Source: a virus
DNA length: 64,000 nucleotides
Reading direction: 5' to 3' (one strand)
IMG/VR virus record: IMGVR_UViG_3300037466_003065
Span: 120,788 to 184,787 of that record
The translations under genes and the position numbers were made by a program. The notes beneath the pieces were generated by a model that saw only the letters and a program-made list of their open reading frames with translations, was not told the origin of the DNA and made no database searches. Position 1 is the stretch's first letter; each line of letters begins with the position of its first letter. Below, one piece after another: positions 5,070 to 42,396 of the stretch.

Positions 5070-5112
5070 GAAAGGGAAGATGGCCTCGTGGTGGGGTCAC
5101 CACAAGGCCATC
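5070..5112 (-). terminator. terminator-like hairpin upstream of RBS
   Basis: Near-perfect stem 5079-5112 (GATGGCCT..GTGGTG/CACCAC..AGGCCATC), then TTCCCTTT. Confidence 0.55.
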
Positions 5113-5152
5113 GTGATTAGAACCGTCAACCAGAAAATCCGCCAGCCGTCGC

Positions 5153-5305
5153 TCAGACTCCCTCGGGGATTACGCCCCACACGGGCACCCTCCTCTCATG
5201 GTGAGCCTCCACACATTCCAGGAACTCGCCGATCACCTTTCCGTTCCGGCTGATCGTGCAACAGACCCATGCCGCGTTCATCTGCTCGCGATGCAGTTGG
5301 TACAT
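5153..5305 (-). CDS. small hypothetical protein (50 aa)
   Basis: MYQLHREQMNAAWVCCTISRNGK...; AGGAGGCATC leader; below ORF-track cutoff. Confidence 0.55.
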   Translation of the reverse strand: MYQLHREQMNAAWVCCTISRNGKVIGEFLECVEAHHERRVPVWGVIPEGV

Positions 5306-5395
5306 GATGCCTCCTGAAGGGGTGAGGGGATTGAACCATTCTTCGGCTTGAAGTCAATGGGATTACATGGGGAATTTCCGGAACATGACCCGGTG

Positions 5396-7759
5396 TTATG
5401 CCTCCGACGTTGTGATGGCCTCCGCGGGCTGCCGAGGCCGCTGTTTGTCCATCAACTGGATGTATTCGAAAATCGCCTTGAGGGGCTCCTCCTGGATGTG
5501 GGAGCTCCCGACGAAGTGCTTGATCATCGGGTACGCCCGGTTGAACGCCGCGATCGCGTTCGTGATTCGCTTCTCGACCCTCGAAAGGTCGGGCAGCGGC
5601 ACGCCGAGCAGGCTGCAGGCGTAGTCGCACGCACCGGCCGTCACGTTGTTGTACTTGCCGTGCACCTCGTCCTGGGCCTCGTACAGCAAGCGGGCCGGCG
5701 ACTTGGCCCGGAGCGACGGGATCGCCTCGAGGTAACCCTGCACACGCTGCACGAGGTTGGTCTCCAGGCAGTCCAGACTCCGGTCAAGCCGCCGGCGCAT
5801 CGCGGCGTCGCGGGCTGCCGCGTCGGCCTCCAGTTTCTCCTTCAGCCAGACGTCCAGCCGCTTCCAGTTCTTCAGCTTCTCGATCTTCGGGAGCATCGCC
5901 GACCGGACGCCGACCACGTCACGCCAGTACATCAGGCCCGTGTAGTCGTCCATTCGCTCGAGCCGCGACTTGAGGGACGCGGGAGGGGCGAACCCGCCCG
6001 TGCTCCAACTGTAGCGGTCTTCGGTCTCCGGGTCGGACACCTTGCCGGCCCTCCACTCGAAGCCCTTGACCTCGACGTAGACGACCTCTTCCTCGGTGTC
6101 GTCGAGGTCGACGTCGGCGTCCCGCCACGCGTAGACCGGCGAGTCGAAGCTGTGCTGCAGCCGCACGATCTTGGCCGTCTTCCGGCTCTCGCGTTCGGCC
6201 CGCGGCGGCTCGGGGAGCGACGACACCGGCTTGACCAGGTGGTCGAACTCCTCGTCCCGCATCCACTTCACGAAGGCCCCGTCGTCCTCGGTCGCCGGCT
6301 CGATCAGGTAGACCGTGAGGTGTGTCCGGTTGCGGCGGGCCTGCTCCATGAGCAAGCGGATGCGGGTGTGGAAGCCGGTGTCCACGTCCTTGCGGAAGAC
6401 GAGCACGTCCTCCTTGGCCGAGATGTACTCGACGCGATCACGGGCGATGCGCATCGGGTCGTTCGTCCGCCGGCCCGCCACCCACTCGTACCTCGTGCCG
6501 TAGGCCACCCGCTTGTCGCCGTCGCCGAAGTGAATGCCGGTCGAGACCTCCTTGCCTCGCCACCGCAGGCCACTGCTGTCGATCAGGCCGCGGAGGTAGT
6601 AGCGGCTCGTGAACCGCCAGAGTTGGACGCGGGCGTCCCACATCGTCTCGACGGCCGAGAGGTCTCGCTCGGTCTCCGCGATCAGGTCGGCCGCCAGCTT
6701 GCGCAGCCGCTCCTTCAGCGTCGCGTAGGTGGGCCCGCTGTCGTACTTCAGGGCCTCGCGGCTGGCCGCCATGTTGACCTCGCCGATACCGACCCGGAGC
6801 ACCGGGCCGACCTCCTGGGCGAGGAACGTCTCGGCCTTCGTGAGTGAGTTGCGGAACTCCTCGTCCAGGTCTTGCCACCGACCGACCGGGTAGTGGACGT
6901 TGCCCATCAGCACGCCGAACGAGTCGACGTGCTGGCCCCGGTAATGGTGCCGCTGGCCTTGGTCGTGGGCGAAGATCATCCAGTCGCCGCTCTCCTTGGC
7001 GATGGCCGGGATCTTGAGCTGGTCGGCCGAGACGCCGGTGACCAGCGGCTTGGTCTCGAACCACTTGTAGACCTCGATCGCCTTCGTGCGGAACAGGTTG
7101 AAGTCCTTGGCCTGCACGGGCACGGTCACCTTCAGGCCGCTGGGCTCGTCGGTCGGCTCGTAGGACAGTCGCACCACGCCGGGCATCTCCTCGCCCTTGA
7201 ACATGGTGTAGATGCCCTTCATGCCGTCGCACACCGACGTGACGGTGTACGAGTCGGTGTACGCGAACGGCGACTTCGACCCCAGCCCGAGGCACCCCGT
7301 ATAGTCGTTGGAGTGATTCTTGTCGGAGTCGAAGTAGACCGTGTAGTTGCCCTGGCGGAACGTCATGCCGGGCTCGCCGCACTTCGGGCAGGTGTAGATG
7401 TCCTGCCGGTTCGGCACGGGCGCCGGCTCGGCGTCGGAGTCCTCGGTGTGGCCGCACAGGCACTCGAAGTACCCGCGGATGCGGTAGTCGCTCAGGCCGG
7501 TGCCGAAGTCCTGGATCGTCAGGTTCGGGTCGGTCAGCGACGGGATGATCACGACGAACGGCACGTGCCGCTTGCCGGCCGCGACGTGGGCGTCGGCGGC
7601 GTTCGTCCCCAGCTCGCGGATGATGGCCCGAATCGCGTCGGAGTAGAGGCCGCCGGACAGGATCTCGGCGGCCTTCATGGACATCTTCATACCGAAGCCG
7701 CGGGGCCGGCCGACGTTGGAGCTGCGTTGAGCGGGCGCGGACGAGGTTGCGAGTTTCAT
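5396..7759 (-). CDS. rIIA: RIIA-like protein (N-terminal GHKL/Hsp90-type ATPase)
   Basis: LYSDAIRAIIRELGTNAADAH, IQDFGTGLS and GCLGLGSKSPFAYTDSYTVTSV are characteristic of phage rIIA; adjacent to rIIB. Confidence 0.88.
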   Translation of the reverse strand: MKLATSSAPAQRSSNVGRPRGFGMKMSMKAAEILSGGLYSDAIRAIIRELGTNAADAHVAAGKRHVPFVVIIPSLTDPNLTIQDFGTGLSDYRIRGYFECLCGHTEDSDAEPAPVPNRQDIYTCPKCGEPGMTFRQGNYTVYFDSDKNHSNDYTGCLGLGSKSPFAYTDSYTVTSVCDGMKGIYTMFKGEEMPGVVRLSYEPTDEPSGLKVTVPVQAKDFNLFRTKAIEVYKWFETKPLVTGVSADQLKIPAIAKESGDWMIFAHDQGQRHHYRGQHVDSFGVLMGNVHYPVGRWQDLDEEFRNSLTKAETFLAQEVGPVLRVGIGEVNMAASREALKYDSGPTYATLKERLRKLAADLIAETERDLSAVETMWDARVQLWRFTSRYYLRGLIDSSGLRWRGKEVSTGIHFGDGDKRVAYGTRYEWVAGRRTNDPMRIARDRVEYISAKEDVLVFRKDVDTGFHTRIRLLMEQARRNRTHLTVYLIEPATEDDGAFVKWMRDEEFDHLVKPVSSLPEPPRAERESRKTAKIVRLQHSFDSPVYAWRDADVDLDDTEEEVVYVEVKGFEWRAGKVSDPETEDRYSWSTGGFAPPASLKSRLERMDDYTGLMYWRDVVGVRSAMLPKIEKLKNWKRLDVWLKEKLEADAAARDAAMRRRLDRSLDCLETNLVQRVQGYLEAIPSLRAKSPARLLYEAQDEVHGKYNNVTAGACDYACSLLGVPLPDLSRVEKRITNAIAAFNRAYPMIKHFVGSSHIQEEPLKAIFEYIQLMDKQRPRQPAEAITTSEA

Positions 7760-32632: not shown

Positions 32633-33154
32633 TTACCTGACGGGCTTGACGACGCGGCTGTTGTGCTGTTCGAACTCCCGAACCTTGTAGGCCGAGTTGG
32701 GGTAGAGCCGCAGGAAGTTGCGACGCTTGGCCTCGTAGCTTTCCTCGACGTTCACGCCCACCCTGTTCTGGAGGATCAGGATGTGGATGCGGTTCAGCTC
32801 ACGGAGCTTCATCGCCTCGTGCTGGAAGTCTCTGGCCCGCCCCTTGGCGATCGGTTTGTAGAAGCAGGGATTCTGCTTCGGAGGCTTGGGGCTGCGAGGG
32901 CCCTTGCAGCCCGGCGTCCGCGGCCCGTGGTGCCACGGCGTGGCCTTCAACATCCGCGGCGTGATGCTGACGGTGGACTTGATGCCCAGGCCCACCGGCC
33001 CGCCGGCCATGTGGGGCTTGAGCACGCCGATGTACTCGACCCGGCGCCGGGCACTGGCCTGGGACATGCTCAGGCCGTGCACCTTCGGAGACGGGACGGG
33101 GAGCACGCGGCACTTCGGGTGGGGCGTGCGGGAGTCGTACACTTTCTCTTTCAT
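32633..33154 (-). CDS. basic hypothetical protein
   Basis: Lys/Arg/Pro-rich ORF in co-oriented run. Confidence 0.55.
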   Translation of the reverse strand: MKEKVYDSRTPHPKCRVLPVPSPKVHGLSMSQASARRRVEYIGVLKPHMAGGPVGLGIKSTVSITPRMLKATPWHHGPRTPGCKGPRSPKPPKQNPCFYKPIAKGRARDFQHEAMKLRELNRIHILILQNRVGVNVEESYEAKRRNFLRLYPNSAYKVREFEQHNSRVVKPVR

Positions 33155-33158
33155 GGCA

Positions 33159-33560
33159 TCACCCAATGCGGTTGAACCGGAACTCGAAGCCGAGGAAGTT
33201 GTCGCGGAGCACGCTGATGCGGGCCTTCGCCTCGTCGAGGGTGTAGCCGGCTTCGACCATCGTCCAGGTGCCGGCGCCGGGGCAGCACTCGGGGATCTGC
33301 TGTTCGATCTTGTAGCGGATCGGCTCGTGCTTCAGCTCCTCCCGCTTGATCTGTTCGGCGAGCTGGGCGCAGTCCCTGCTGCTGAACCCGGCGATCAGGC
33401 AGCAGCCGTGCAGCCGCCGCATCTGCTCGATGGTGCGGCAGGGGACGTACAGCACCTCGTCGACGAGCGTCCAGGTCAGCTCGTTGCGCTCGAGGTGTTC
33501 CGACAGACGACAGGTCTCCTCCTCACCGAGCTTGGAGATGTCGATCGTGAACGTGGTCAT
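33159..33560 (-). CDS. hypothetical protein
   Basis: AGGAGG RBS. Confidence 0.75.
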   Translation of the reverse strand: MTTFTIDISKLGEEETCRLSEHLERNELTWTLVDEVLYVPCRTIEQMRRLHGCCLIAGFSSRDCAQLAEQIKREELKHEPIRYKIEQQIPECCPGAGTWTMVEAGYTLDEAKARISVLRDNFLGFEFRFNRIG

Positions 33561-33582
33561 AAGACCTCCTGTGTTGGAGACG

Positions 33583-33613
33583 AAAGAAGCCGGCGGGTTT
33601 GCGGCCCGCCGGC
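33583..33613 (-). terminator. intrinsic terminator at 3' end of the large structured RNA
   Basis: 9-bp stem GCCGGCGGG/CCCGCCGGC, then TTCTTT. Confidence 0.65.
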
Positions 33614-34907
33614 CCCGGTGTACACGATGCTGTCCCGTAGGTCGCTCCAGTTCCCTGTTGCCAGGAGGATTGCGTTATCACCTCATCGTGTCGCTCCCCG
33701 GGCATTGCCGGGGCTGTTGCCTCAGACCCTCCGCGGTCTCCAGTGCGGAGGTGGTCTGTGTCGTCCTACCGTCTCACCCATTGGGCAACGAGAGCTGGGG
33801 GCAGGATCGTGGACAATGCCACGTCCAACCCAGCCCGCCCCTGCTCCACGGTGTGTTGTGGGCCTGGGCATCTCTGGGAGTACGGCGAAGCGAGCCACCA
33901 CTGCACGCCGGTCGGCGTTCTCGACGGGATCTGTGCCTCTGCTACGATCGATCAGTCACGCCCCCATGCGATGGGTCTTTAGCCCTTGCGGCTGGGCATC
34001 GGTCACGATCGTGGCAGGCAAACAGCACGCCCGTCACCCACGCGGCTTGCTAGGCCGAACGGGCGAACGGAGACGACTGCATGCAGCTCATGCTCGCTTC
34101 TGTGCTTTCGCTAGTGCGGCTTTACGCCCGCGTTGCTCCCTTCGGACTCCGCGATACCTTCCGCTGTCGTCCCAGCTCGGGGCTGGTTCTGCGACAGACC
34201 ACGATCCTTCAACGTGCTCGCCTAGCGGGGCCAGGGGCCTGGCCACAAGCCAGACCGCCGCAAGTGGCGTTCCTGCTTTAAATCACGCATCGGCACAAGA
34301 CCGAAGGTAGGGAACGCCCCAAGGCATCAACTCACACTGGGGATCGTGGTCAACGGTACGTCACGCGGCGTCCTCTGGACGCGTCAGAACCGCGGGCGTC
34401 GTCACGACGTGCCGCGGGCCGTTTCAAACCACACTACTACTCACCAAGGTATTCAGAGTCATGTCCCATTCGGGCAGTCCCAACCACACAGTCGGAACAT
34501 CCGTTTGGGGCTCGTTTATCACCTTGCCCTTTTGCACCGCGTTACCGGTGCGTTTTAAGGTCGTTTCTTGAGGGTAACGACCCTGAGCAACTTTACACCA
34601 CCGGAACTATCCCGCATCCACCGGCCATGAACCCCCGAAGGGGCGGATGGGCGGCTTCCGCTGATAGCCCGCTATGGGCCACCGACCCGGCTCGCCTTGC
34701 GAGCTTTGCGAGGTTGGCTTCCGCCATTCAAGAACCCACCTAGTGGGCGTGCTGTCCGATTCTCAGCACCCGCTGAACGTGGTTCCCGACGAATCGGGGC
34801 GACGTTGAGCAGTCGACCATTGGGGCCGACGCTTGCACCGCAGTCTCTACCGCGTGCAAGGCATCACCTTTGGCCAGTGGCTACCACCGGCCGCAGGGTT
34901 TGATTAG
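33614..34907 (-). ncRNA. candidate giant structured non-coding RNA (about 1.3 kb)
   Basis: No RBS-led, codon-biased ORF; many nested helices (e.g. 34197-34207/34341-34351, 34266-34273/34311-34318, 33934-33950/34006-34020); UUCG/GNRA loops and G-U pairs on the minus strand. Confidence 0.6.
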
Positions 34908-34943
34908 GACAAGCGAATAGGCACTGTGAGACCCCCGAGCTGG
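34908..34943. repeat. 36-bp inverted repeat, left arm
   Basis: GACAAGCGAATAGGCACTGTGAGACCCCCGAGCTGG; 32/36 identical to the reverse complement of 35737-35772. Confidence 0.9.
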
Positions 34944-34972
34944 ACACTACAAACGACCCCCTTCACTCACGA

Positions 34973-35671
34973 CTACTCCCGAACCACGACCCGGCAGAAC
35001 TGCGCGGCCGTTTCCGACCGGTTCAGCAGAACCTGCTCGAAGGCCAAGTCGACGGGCTTGGTTGCCCCGTCGATGGTCTTGACCGACCCGCCGGACAGCG
35101 CCCGCACCGCGTTCATCGCGGCCGGCACGCGGCCCCACGCCCGGTTGACCCACTCCTGCGCCTTCATGAAGTGCTTCGCCACCTCCTCTTTCTTTGCGGC
35201 GACCCACTTCTCCACCAGCGCCGCATCCTGCGGCTTGACCTCGACGGTGCCGATCTTGCCACCGTCCTTACGGGCGAGCGCCTCGGCGTCAATCGCCTTG
35301 AGGCGAGCGTCGCGGTGCGCCTCAAGTGCGGCCAAGACCTCCACGGTGGGGATCTTGGCGAGGAACCCTTGCGTCACGGTGCGAGCCTTCATGGGCTTGC
35401 CACCGTTGCGAGCCTTGCAGCACGCCTTCACGGCCGACCCGAGCATCGGGCCGGCGCCCGTCCCCTTGTCGAAGATCCCGAAGATCAGGGCATACGCCGC
35501 GGCGCTGGTGCGCTTGCGGAGTTCGCCCATGTCGGCCTTGCGGAGGTCTTGGAGGTTCTGGGCCGTCGCATCGAGAACGAGAACATCCTCGTGCGAGAAG
35601 CCCAGCGCCTCATCAATCGCCGCTGCCGCCTTCGAGACCGAACGAGAAGAAACTTTCGTGTCCTTAGCCAT
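34973..35671 (-). CDS. basic Ala/Lys-rich protein enclosed by the inverted repeat
   Basis: MAKDTKVSSR... after GGGAG RBS; clear phage codon bias. Confidence 0.85.
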   Translation of the reverse strand: MAKDTKVSSRSVSKAAAAIDEALGFSHEDVLVLDATAQNLQDLRKADMGELRKRTSAAAYALIFGIFDKGTGAGPMLGSAVKACCKARNGGKPMKARTVTQGFLAKIPTVEVLAALEAHRDARLKAIDAEALARKDGGKIGTVEVKPQDAALVEKWVAAKKEEVAKHFMKAQEWVNRAWGRVPAAMNAVRALSGGSVKTIDGATKPVDLAFEQVLLNRSETAAQFCRVVVRE

Positions 35672-35736
35672 TGTCAACTCCCGCCGGAACCTGTCCGGCA
35701 TGTTAGAGACCAACAAACAGAACGATAGAACCAGAA

Positions 35737-35772
35737 CCAGCTAAGGGGTCTCACAGTACCTATTCACTTGTC
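35737..35772. repeat. 36-bp inverted repeat, right arm
   Basis: CCAGCTAAGGGGTCTCACAGTACCTATTCACTTGTC. Confidence 0.9.
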
Positions 35773-36060
35773 AAAGAACATGCCTGCGCACGCTCTAGTC
35801 GACGGTCGCTCTTTGCGTAGGGTATGGGCTTATCCCAATGGGGCACCTAGGCACGTACATCGCCTAGGGGTTCTACCCACGTTGACCGCTTGACGTCTCA
35901 CGACGTAGGCGGGGTTCGGTGCGGCTGCCGCACCGTCAACGGGCATCGCGTTTTGTCCACCTAGACCCACGACACGCGGCGAACCGCGTAACGTGAGCGG
36001 GGGTTTCTCCCACGCGACCCACACGAACACGACCGAAGATTTCAAAGAGCAACATCACGA
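35773..36060 (-). ncRNA. structured 5' segment of the same putative transcript
   Basis: Hairpins ACGCGG-TTCG-CCGCGT (35974-35989), CGGTGCGG/CCGCACCG (35917-35935), ACGTC-GTGA-GACGT, CCTAGG/CCTAGG; no credible ORF. Confidence 0.5.
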
Positions 36061-36089
36061 GGCACCAGTTAGACGACTGCGGCGAATCC

Positions 36090-36378
36090 GGCAGAGGTGC
36101 GCGGGGTGGGGGGCTTTGGGATCGGGCGACCTGGTCGGCCTGGCCGACCTATATGGGCAGGCTTTCACATAAGGGTCAGGCCAAACTCAAAATGGGCGGG
36201 GGCCTCTCCCAATCACATCTGCGAACATGGATCAGATCGAAGGGCGGGCTCGAAAATTAGGCGGGGGCCAGAGTCACATGACCATGACACAGGGGGCGGG
36301 GGTGGTCTGAGCTGGATCGAAAGGGGCGGGGGCGAGATGGGGTCGGTTCAAAATTTTACGGGGGAAGGGTCGAAATAA
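36090..36378 (+). other. G-tract-rich strand-switch block (possible genome end/pac region or G-quadruplex)
   Basis: More than 15 runs of GGG or longer on the plus strand, interspersed with TCAAAAT/TCGAAA motifs. Confidence 0.4.
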
Positions 36379-36426
36379 TCAGGGGCATGTTCGGGTTTCT
36401 GTTGTTCCACTCACAATTAGTTCTAC

Positions 36427-36819
36427 GTGGAACACGAGCTCATCCTTATGTTCCACAGGGGAACATCCGATGTCGGGGGCATGGATTTCAACACGGGCTA
36501 CATCATGGGGCTGGTCGTTGGCGGGGGCTGCTTCACGATCCACCAGAACAAGAAGAGTGGGCAGGTCACACCGACGTTCAGCCTGAAGCTGCACGAGCGG
36601 GACTACCAGCCACTACTCGACCTGCAGAAGCTGTTGGGAGGGACGATCTACGGGCCCTACAACCACCAGAAGCGGAAGTATCGGGCGCTCTTCGTGCGAG
36701 GGGCTGATCTGGCGAAGGCGATCCCTGTGTTCGACAACTACCTGCCGAAGAGCCACAAGAGGGATCAGTTCTCGGCTTGGTTGGAGCACGAACGGGTCAG
36801 GGTGCTGTGGCAGAAATGA
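36427..36819 (+). CDS. single-motif LAGLIDADG homing-endonuclease-like protein, probably catalytically inactive
   Basis: GYIMGLVVGGGCFTI helix (acidic metal ligand replaced by Gly), FSLKL strand, LLDLQKLLGGTIY, IPVFDNYL..SHKRDQF; start may be 36448 or 36481. Confidence 0.75.
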   Translation: MEHELILMFHRGTSDVGGMDFNTGYIMGLVVGGGCFTIHQNKKSGQVTPTFSLKLHERDYQPLLDLQKLLGGTIYGPYNHQKRKYRALFVRGADLAKAIPVFDNYLPKSHKRDQFSAWLEHERVRVLWQK

Positions 36820-36820
36820 A

Positions 36821-36901
36821 GGCCCAGAGGAGGGAGTCGAACCCTCGGTGCGTGTCAAGCACTAGCCGCTGCGTCCGTGCCGTTGGTAGACTTCACTGGG
36901 C
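36821..36901 (-). tRNA. non-canonical tRNA-like element (anticodon ambiguous)
   Basis: 8-bp acceptor GCCCAGTG/CTCTGGGC (1 mismatch), D-arm GTCT/GGAC with GG in the loop, T-arm GAGGG-TTCGACT-CCCTC; irregular anticodon arm; no encoded CCA. Confidence 0.5.
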
Positions 36902-37047: not shown

Positions 37048-37080
37048 AAAAGAACCCCGCTGTGTGGGTGATCAGCGGGG
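37048..37080 (-). terminator. intrinsic terminator
   Basis: CCCCGCTG/CAGCGGGG stem, then TTCTTTT. Confidence 0.7.
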
Positions 37081-37144
37081 CGCTTTCCCTACCCGACCGG
37101 GCCTGATAGCAACACACCACCAGGTGGGGATCCATGTCGGGCAG

Positions 37145-37366
37145 CTAATTCTGTGCTGCGTGCAGTGACGCGAGTAGCTCGTCGACGACGGCGGTTGTAA
37201 TCGAGTTCCGGGCCTGACGCAACGCCTCGATCGCCTGGTCGATCTGGTCTACGTCAAGGGTGCCGTCGAACCCGAGCAGGGTGACCGTGAAGTGGGCGGC
37301 ACTGGTGCCACTGGTCAGGGGGGACTGCTGGACGTGGGCCTCGAAGCCTCCGTGCATGATGAGCAT
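37145..37366 (-). CDS. hypothetical protein
   Basis: MLIMHGG... after AAAGGAG. Confidence 0.65.
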   Translation of the reverse strand: MLIMHGGFEAHVQQSPLTSGTSAAHFTVTLLGFDGTLDVDQIDQAIEALRQARNSITTAVVDELLASLHAAQN

Positions 37367-37392
37367 GGCACTCCTTTGCTGAAGTGGCACGC

Positions 37393-42172: not shown

Positions 42173-42350
42173 GGAGATGGTCTCGATCGCCGGCGCCGCG
42201 CAGCACGCCGACCCCGCCGTCCGCAAGCGAATCCTCAAGCTGTTGAAAGCCGAGCACGAACGTCTCGAGGTCGTGCACAACCACATTGGCCAAATCGAGT
42301 TGCTCGAGGACTACATCGAAAACAAACGCAAAAACCGCAAAAACCAGTGA
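42102..42350 (+). CDS. hypothetical coiled-coil protein
   Basis: Codon-biased ORF; start uncertain. Confidence 0.5.
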   Translation: MKSSSPPSPKVSVRLRRQFDAIREEMVSIAGAAQHADPAVRKRILKLLKAEHERLEVVHNHIGQIELLEDYIENKRKNRKNQ

Positions 42351-42396
42351 AAAACGTCGATTTGGAGCCGTTTTCCACTGGTTTTTGCGGTTTTTG
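42329..42396. repeat. 28-bp A-tract inverted repeat (hairpin/cruciform, possible bidirectional terminator)
   Basis: 42329-42356 vs 42369-42396, 27/28 match, 12-nt loop. Confidence 0.85.

Follow-up and report, generated by a model that had tools for sequence, protein, structure and literature searches.

The locus described here raises the question of why a single protein-coding gene of a phage lies between the arms of a long inverted repeat, and whether these arms work as a stem in the message of this gene, take part in a process at the DNA level, or have no function. The window, i.e., the whole stretch of DNA that was analyzed, comprises 64 kb and is the final part of a 184,787-bp record of an uncultured phage, rated complete by CheckV. 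A repeat search placed the arms at 34908-34943 and 35737-35772, two sequences of 36 nt that are 793 nt apart and 89% complementary. They agree at 32 of 36 positions, which confirms both the coordinates and the four differences reported in a first-pass annotation of this DNA. The distances given there to the open reading frame (ORF) 34973-35671 are likewise correct, with 29 nt between the stop codon and one arm and 65 nt between the other arm and the ATG. The features of the locus are as follows, in the order in which a minus-strand transcript would contain them, preceded by the neighboring gene on the plus strand:

36427-36819, plus strand: free-standing LAGLIDADG ORF of 130 aa (Pfam LAGLIDADG_1, E = 9.8e-12, 46.1 bits)
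35773-36426, minus strand: non-coding leader of about 650 nt, upstream of the 5' arm
35737-35772, minus strand: 5' (upstream) arm in the mRNA sense, pairing with 34908-34943
35672-35736, minus strand: 5' untranslated region (UTR) of 65 nt between the 5' arm and the ATG, from sequence reading and local folding
34973-35671, minus strand: ORF P0001, 232 aa, all-helical, no assigned function (coding periodicity, homologs, AF2 model)
34944-34972, minus strand: spacer of 29 nt from the stop codon to the 3' arm, without a local terminator hairpin
34908-34943, minus strand: 3' (downstream) arm in the mRNA sense, pairing probability 0.93-1.00 at 35 of 36 positions
34893-34898 with 35783-35788, minus strand: possible outer helix of 6 bp (CGCAGG/CCTGCG), separated from the arms by a 10 x 10 internal loop
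33617-34907, minus strand: non-coding trailer of about 1.3 kb, from the 3' arm to a terminator-like hairpin
33586-33616, minus strand: intrinsic-terminator-like hairpin with 12 pairs and a T-rich tail

The arms and the gene between them

The two arms differ at positions 7, 15, 29, and 30. At positions 7, 15, and 29, the left arm has C where the reverse complement of the right arm has T, and at position 30 it has G opposite T, so that the 5' arm, read in the mRNA sense, carries T (U) at all four differing positions. A 28-nt core of the arms occurs at exactly two sites in the window (expected 0.00 from 100 shuffles), and a 20-nt core has two sites in the entire 184,787-bp genome, where the arm pair is thus unique. 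In a genome-wide scan of repeats up to 5 kb apart, the pair ranked first and longest among the long-range inverted repeats. A helix scan of the whole genome that allowed for G-U pairs scored it at 81 on the minus-sense RNA and at 66 on the plus-sense RNA, compared with 50-57 for the best helix in each of five shuffled genomes. Restricted to the 500-nt flanks of the P0001 gene, the score of 81 stands about 15 SD above shuffled flanks (32.0 +/- 3.2).

No further stem of comparable strength was found in the genome. The helices that rank next are GC-rich matches whose scores equal or barely exceed the maximum from shuffling. We therefore judge the arm stem to be a lone instance and not one of a system of such stems. 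Searches of the plasmid collection, the phage collection and the IMG/VR viral contigs gave no match to the arms elsewhere, and the arms are unrelated to the 18-bp iteron word of this phage. The edges of the repeat are sharp. The 150 nt inside and the 150 nt outside the arms have no inverted similarity above shuffles, and a longer, decayed inverted duplication was rejected on these grounds. The outer 6-bp helix is at chance level. The second-longest inverted repeat of the genome is a local hairpin at 42329-42396, with 28-nt arms (27 of 28 matching) and a 12-nt loop.

The enclosed ORF P0001 is the sole coding sequence within about 2.9 kb. It displays strong codon-position periodicity and a GC3 of 0.86, equal to that of the neighboring genes; it is a real gene and looks well expressed. 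Its ATG at 35671 is backed by the alignment of homologs and is preceded, 6 nt upstream, by a GGGAG ribosome-binding site. The homologs share 26-65% identity with P0001 (65, 59, and 46% for the closest three, the first of which is encoded on a contig of 5,082 bp and the third on one of 6,328 bp), and the identical P0001 occurs on four other contigs. According to a profile search of 1.8 billion representatives, the family consists of 7 proteins in total, all of them encoded on short metagenome contigs.

The AlphaFold (AF2) model of P0001 is confident and all-helical (pLDDT 82.8, pTM 0.79). No sequence match was obtained in Pfam, PHROGs, NCBIfam, PADLOC or the PDB sequences, and Foldseek returned no informative fold match in the PDB or BFVD. 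The best hit of a wide search with VIA-align (Z 5.9) was confined to a helical hairpin, and the matches in the ESM Atlas were viral hypothetical proteins only. P0001 carries no helix-turn-helix or other DNA-binding signature that we could find. Comparison with Pfam, PHROG and NCBIfam, as well as of the AF2 fold, likewise gave no transposase or recombinase signature of known families.

Predicted pairing of the arms in a minus-strand transcript

On the minus-sense RNA, the arms form a duplex of 36 positions in which 35 are paired, including three G-U pairs, and the remaining one is a U-C mismatch (RNAduplex, -67.0 kcal/mol). The plus-sense RNA would form 31 pairs (-57.6 kcal/mol). The observation that three of the four differences are U-G wobbles and only one is a true mismatch on the minus-strand RNA, made in the first-pass annotation, is thus borne out by the 35 versus 31 pairs. 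When 921 nt of the minus-sense RNA were folded, the stem was part of the minimum-free-energy structure with all 35 pairs, at a probability of 0.93-1.00 save for the mismatch, and neither arm had a strong local competitor structure. With 35 of 36 positions paired, the duplex lies well within the range of at least about 20 bp that marks an rRNA-type RNase III stem. The 5' UTR (35672-35736) contains a U-rich stretch, a small hairpin (CCGGA...UCCGG) and the GGGAG site. Its 65 nt, including the small hairpin and the Shine-Dalgarno (SD) site, and the start codon stay outside the duplex.

The wobble pattern by itself says less about selection. All three transitions are wobbles on the mRNA strand, which corresponds to a p of about 0.125 because a transition always forms a wobble in one of the two possible transcripts and not in the other. 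With three sites, this asymmetry is suggestive of RNA pairing and not significant. GC-to-AT mutation in one arm would explain the pattern equally well, since the sense copy of the upstream arm has T at four of four differences. The earlier proposal that selection acts on RNA pairing is hence unsupported by these sites.

Whether the arms can meet in one RNA depends on the layout of the transcript. Codon-position GC periodicity, as expected of coding DNA, is absent from 33561-34960 and 35680-36420, and the trailer (33617-34907) is a single-copy sequence in the genome. No terminator lies between ORF P0001 and the 3' arm, and the first one on the minus strand is found about 1.3 kb further on. The hairpin at 33586-33616 is likely the 3' end of the P0001 transcription unit. 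As there is no terminator before 33616-33586, transcription of P0001 should extend through the 3' arm and the trailer. On the upstream side, a promoter search of 35773-36426 returned only a weak candidate on the minus strand (CTGATT-18-TAAAAT at 36382), and there is no convincing promoter between the 5' arm and the ORF. We infer that both arms are carried on one transcript. No plus-strand gene able to transcribe the opposite strand at the arm locus was found.

A second hairpin, CCCCGCTG...CAGCGGGG, followed by TTCTTTT on the minus strand, is located at about 37050-37085 and is absent from the list of the terminator scan. From its sequence, it looks like a minus-strand terminator after the gene 37145-37390. 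If it is one, the P0001 transcript needs its own promoter further downstream.

A protein gene within the trailer was considered for the plus-strand ORF 32886-34310 and rejected, as this ORF shows no GC3 bias, a junk translation and no Pfam match. Its frame stays open for 250 codons (33561-34310) across DNA without coding periodicity, which is unusually long for chance at the local GC content, and its product is low-complexity junk rich in R, S, P, and A. This open frame may reflect a strand-asymmetric base composition.

The long non-coding flanks could also be thought to act as RNA themselves. In the first-pass annotation, it was proposed that the stem releases the message and rejoins the flanking halves of a non-coding RNA (ncRNA). 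Taken further than there, the stem would be the closing helix of a giant phage RNA, the message would leave with joined or circularized ends, and leader and trailer would be held together or ligated as a functional ncRNA of about 2 kb. If true, a gene would be nested in an ncRNA as ORFs nest in introns. Apart from the 36-bp stem, however, the complementarity of leader and trailer is at chance level, and the proposal finds no support in it. The best further helix between them scores 38, compared with 36.7 +/- 3.9 in shuffles and 81 for the arm stem, and a global leader-trailer duplex is not better than shuffles.

A giant structured RNA in the flanks was rejected, as the fold z-scores of 200-nt segments (-0.5 to -2.5) resemble those of neighboring coding DNA. 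Rfam gave no match at the gathering threshold. At E <= 5, it gave three chance-level matches within 33300-36700, the best of which (E = 1.9) lies on the wrong strand inside the ORF. The Rfam search found no group I or group II intron core in the P0001 flanks, and ARAGORN called no tRNA or tmRNA. We give the ncRNA reading hardly any credence, and a circularization of the stem-released P0001 message is pure speculation.

A relative without the stem and the alternatives at the DNA level

Scans of the IMG/VR viral contigs, the genome contigs and the phage collection found no relative of the P0001 locus. The single related locus that was compared (L006) comes from the metagenome contigs and is 46.7 kb long. 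It encodes a protein of 206 aa (P0011) that is 41% identical to P0001. Downstream of the P0001-family gene, both phages have over 1.1 kb of DNA that is apparently non-coding, and beyond it a homolog of a 177-aa protein (gene 32633-33166 in the window; E = 1e-13 to its counterpart), and the orientation of the P0001-family gene relative to this conserved downstream gene is the same. Because this gene order is conserved, P0001 is regarded as an old resident of its position and not as a recent cassette.

The relative has no flanking stem; the best helix between its 500-nt flanks scores 27, with 29.9 +/- 2.8 in shuffles. Loss of pairing in a homolog that keeps the ORF had been named beforehand as an outcome that would speak against the RNA reading, and this is partly what we see: the one locus available keeps the ORF and the gene order and is without the stem. 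So the P0001 gene family does not seem to need the stem, which, judging from this comparison, appears to be lineage-specific. At 6503-6536 of the related contig, 8 nt after the stop codon of P0011, there is a perfect 14-bp palindrome or hairpin with a 6-nt spacer and without a T tail. It could be a 3' stabilizer of the RNA, a processing site or an operator. A strong RNA-type structure directly after the ORF thus seems to recur in the relative in a different form.

Flanks of 0.7-1.4 kb are apparently non-coding at both loci (5107-5874 and 6496-7651 in the related contig; 33561-34972 and 35672-36426 in the window) and share zero sequence similarity. Rfam gave no match in the flanks of the relative at E <= 1. 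The presence of long non-coding flanks therefore appears to be conserved, and their sequence not.

A perfect-edged 36-bp repeat cannot have arisen gradually from random sequence; a DNA event must stand at its start, and for this reason a function is not required to explain the existence of the repeat. The arms might be a functionless leftover of such an event, either as terminal inverted repeats of a former one-gene cassette or as an inverted duplication caused by template switching. The layout fits: terminal inverted repeats as in an insertion sequence are present at the ends of the segment, and sharp-edged, imperfect 36-bp repeats around 865 bp, most of which is one ORF, are the classical arrangement of such elements. 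The 11% divergence of the arms is compatible with drift, GC-to-AT pressure would account for the four differences, at each of which one arm has T and the other G or C, and the relative carries the P0001-family gene without arms. Yet there is neither a second copy in the genome nor a target-site duplication, the flanks (...GATTAG on the left, AAAGAA... on the right) sharing not even a 3-bp direct repeat, and the arms resemble nothing in the plasmid or phage collections. P0001 itself, a member of a rare, single-copy phage family, lacks the signature of known transposase or recombinase families, its GC3 is that of the neighboring genes, and the synteny with the relative shows that the gene is no recent arrival. 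Moreover, neutral non-coding DNA of this lineage diverges completely, as seen between the flanks of the window and those of the relative, and an unselected 36-mer at 89% identity would thus need to be young. We regard a mere leftover as rather unlikely.

The arms could also belong to an invertible DNA switch of the Hin/Gin type, in which a site-specific recombinase of the host flips the 865-bp segment and, with a promoter located outside it, thereby switches P0001 expression on or off. The inverted repeats have a suitable length, the segment has roughly the size of the Salmonella H segment, and an outside promoter is conceivable since the stretch from the 5' arm to the ORF contains no convincing one. 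On the other hand, the complete phage genome is without a serine or tyrosine recombinase or an enzyme of the IS110/Piv type. Its 185 kb gave no match to Resolvase, Phage_integrase, DEDD_Tnp_IS110, rve or DDE_Tnp_1, and searches with these five families were positive in 6 to 14 of 14 control genomes. The arms also lack the internal dyad symmetry of hix, gix and lox-type core sites, P0001 is neither a tail-fibre nor a surface protein, and its gene has, with respect to the conserved gene downstream, the orientation seen in the relative, all of which makes a switch improbable.

More improbable still are two long binding sites for a protein, possibly P0001 itself, that would act on the DNA by looping or insulating the gene. 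P0001 is an uncharacterized helical protein that could bind DNA, and the repeat occurs exactly twice. Operators usually conserve just the contact bases, though, and 36 contiguous matching bases with sharp edges are unlike them. The arms have no relation to the iteron word, P0001 shows no helix-turn-helix or other DNA-binding signature, and the relative retains the protein without the sites.

The alternatives at the DNA level are thus weakened. As to the earlier view that the repeat acts in RNA and not in DNA, one part of it finds support: the stem is far beyond chance, it lies in the UTRs, and the DNA-level rivals are without the partners that such elements usually have. The part that concerns selection finds none, and the relative is without the pairing.

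A candidate processing stem and its neighborhood

We tentatively posit that the arms form a stem between the 5' and 3' UTR that is an RNase III processing site or an end clamp for the P0001 message, a reading that we hold to be the likeliest of those compared and would not yet call probable. Within a single minus-strand transcript, the arms would form the untranslated 5' and 3' flanks, and their pairing would loop out the entire P0001 coding region including its ribosome-binding site. Duplexes as long as this one are textbook substrates of the double-strand-specific RNase III. The enzyme would be that of the host, as no phage-encoded RNase III was found in the genome. By cutting the arm duplex, it would detach the message of this one gene from its leader, at most about 650 nt long, and from the 1.3-kb trailer. 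The ends of the released message would remain base-paired and might be shielded in this way from end-dependent RNases, and a duplex left uncut could still serve as an end clamp. Both the cleavage of the duplex by RNase III and a benefit to expression are what we infer from this arrangement.

The proposed stem resembles those of bacterial rrn operons, where 16S and 23S rRNA are bracketed by long-range stems that are cut by RNase III (PMC6582327). In both cases, complementary sequences that are hundreds to thousands of nt apart enclose an RNA and pair into a long duplex with two or more helical turns. The cut in the rrn stems releases the enclosed rRNA from its flanks, and the same is proposed here for the P0001 message. 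In contrast to the rrn stems, the P0001 stem is a single case from a phage and encloses a protein-coding message, and its cleavage is putative.

Pairing between the 5' and 3' UTR within one mRNA, as would take place in the P0001 transcript, has precedents in two bacteria. In the icaR mRNA of Staphylococcus aureus, it forms an RNase III substrate (PMC3868564), and in the hbs mRNA of Bacillus subtilis, it governs the access of ribonucleases (PMC5737220). The icaR pairing is short, covers the SD site and blocks translation (PMC3868564), whereas the P0001 duplex spans 36 positions, lies 65 nt upstream of the ATG and leaves the SD free. Translational control of the icaR type, through pairing of the 3' UTR with the SD, was rejected for P0001, as its GGGAG site is outside the duplex. 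Because the SD is free, the P0001 stem would affect processing or stability and not initiation.

During T7 infection, the polycistronic early and late transcripts are processed by host RNase III, which yields stable single messages with stems at their ends. Unlike the P0001 stem, these T7 sites are local hairpins between genes and not long-range structures that enclose one. Insertion sequences and the segments of Hin-hix, Gin-gix and other invertons have imperfect inverted repeats of 20-40 bp, a size of about 0.9 kb and one ORF. The P0001 segment differs from them in being single-copy, without a transposase or invertase of the families searched in it or elsewhere in the phage genome, without a target duplication, and syntenic with a repeat-less relative. 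To our knowledge, descriptions for bacterial and phage mRNAs are limited to local RNase III hairpins, as in T7, and to short contacts between 5' and 3' UTR, as in icaR and hbs.

Should the stem act at the RNA level, this phage would handle a protein-coding message in the way that bacteria handle rRNA. A double-strand RNase of the host would excise the message, with its ends clamped, from a long transcript that is mostly non-coding. The locus is a single candidate and is of value mainly as a clean and simple test substrate with one gene, one stem and a known ORF.

Some further features are located upstream of the P0001 unit. On the minus strand at 36821-36901, there is a clear T-arm-like motif (GAGGGTTCGACTCCCTCC); this segment was not called as a tRNA by ARAGORN and has no Rfam tRNA match. 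The LAGLIDADG ORF at 36427-36819 is directed away from the P0001 unit. Just upstream of this gene, in the lowest-GC part of the leader, three copies of the 17-nt word TCRAAAnnGGGCGGGGGC are arranged on the plus strand at 36187-36333 with an exact period of 65 nt. Two weaker copies seem to continue this array, possibly to about 36395, and it could represent a set of binding sites or a promoter array.
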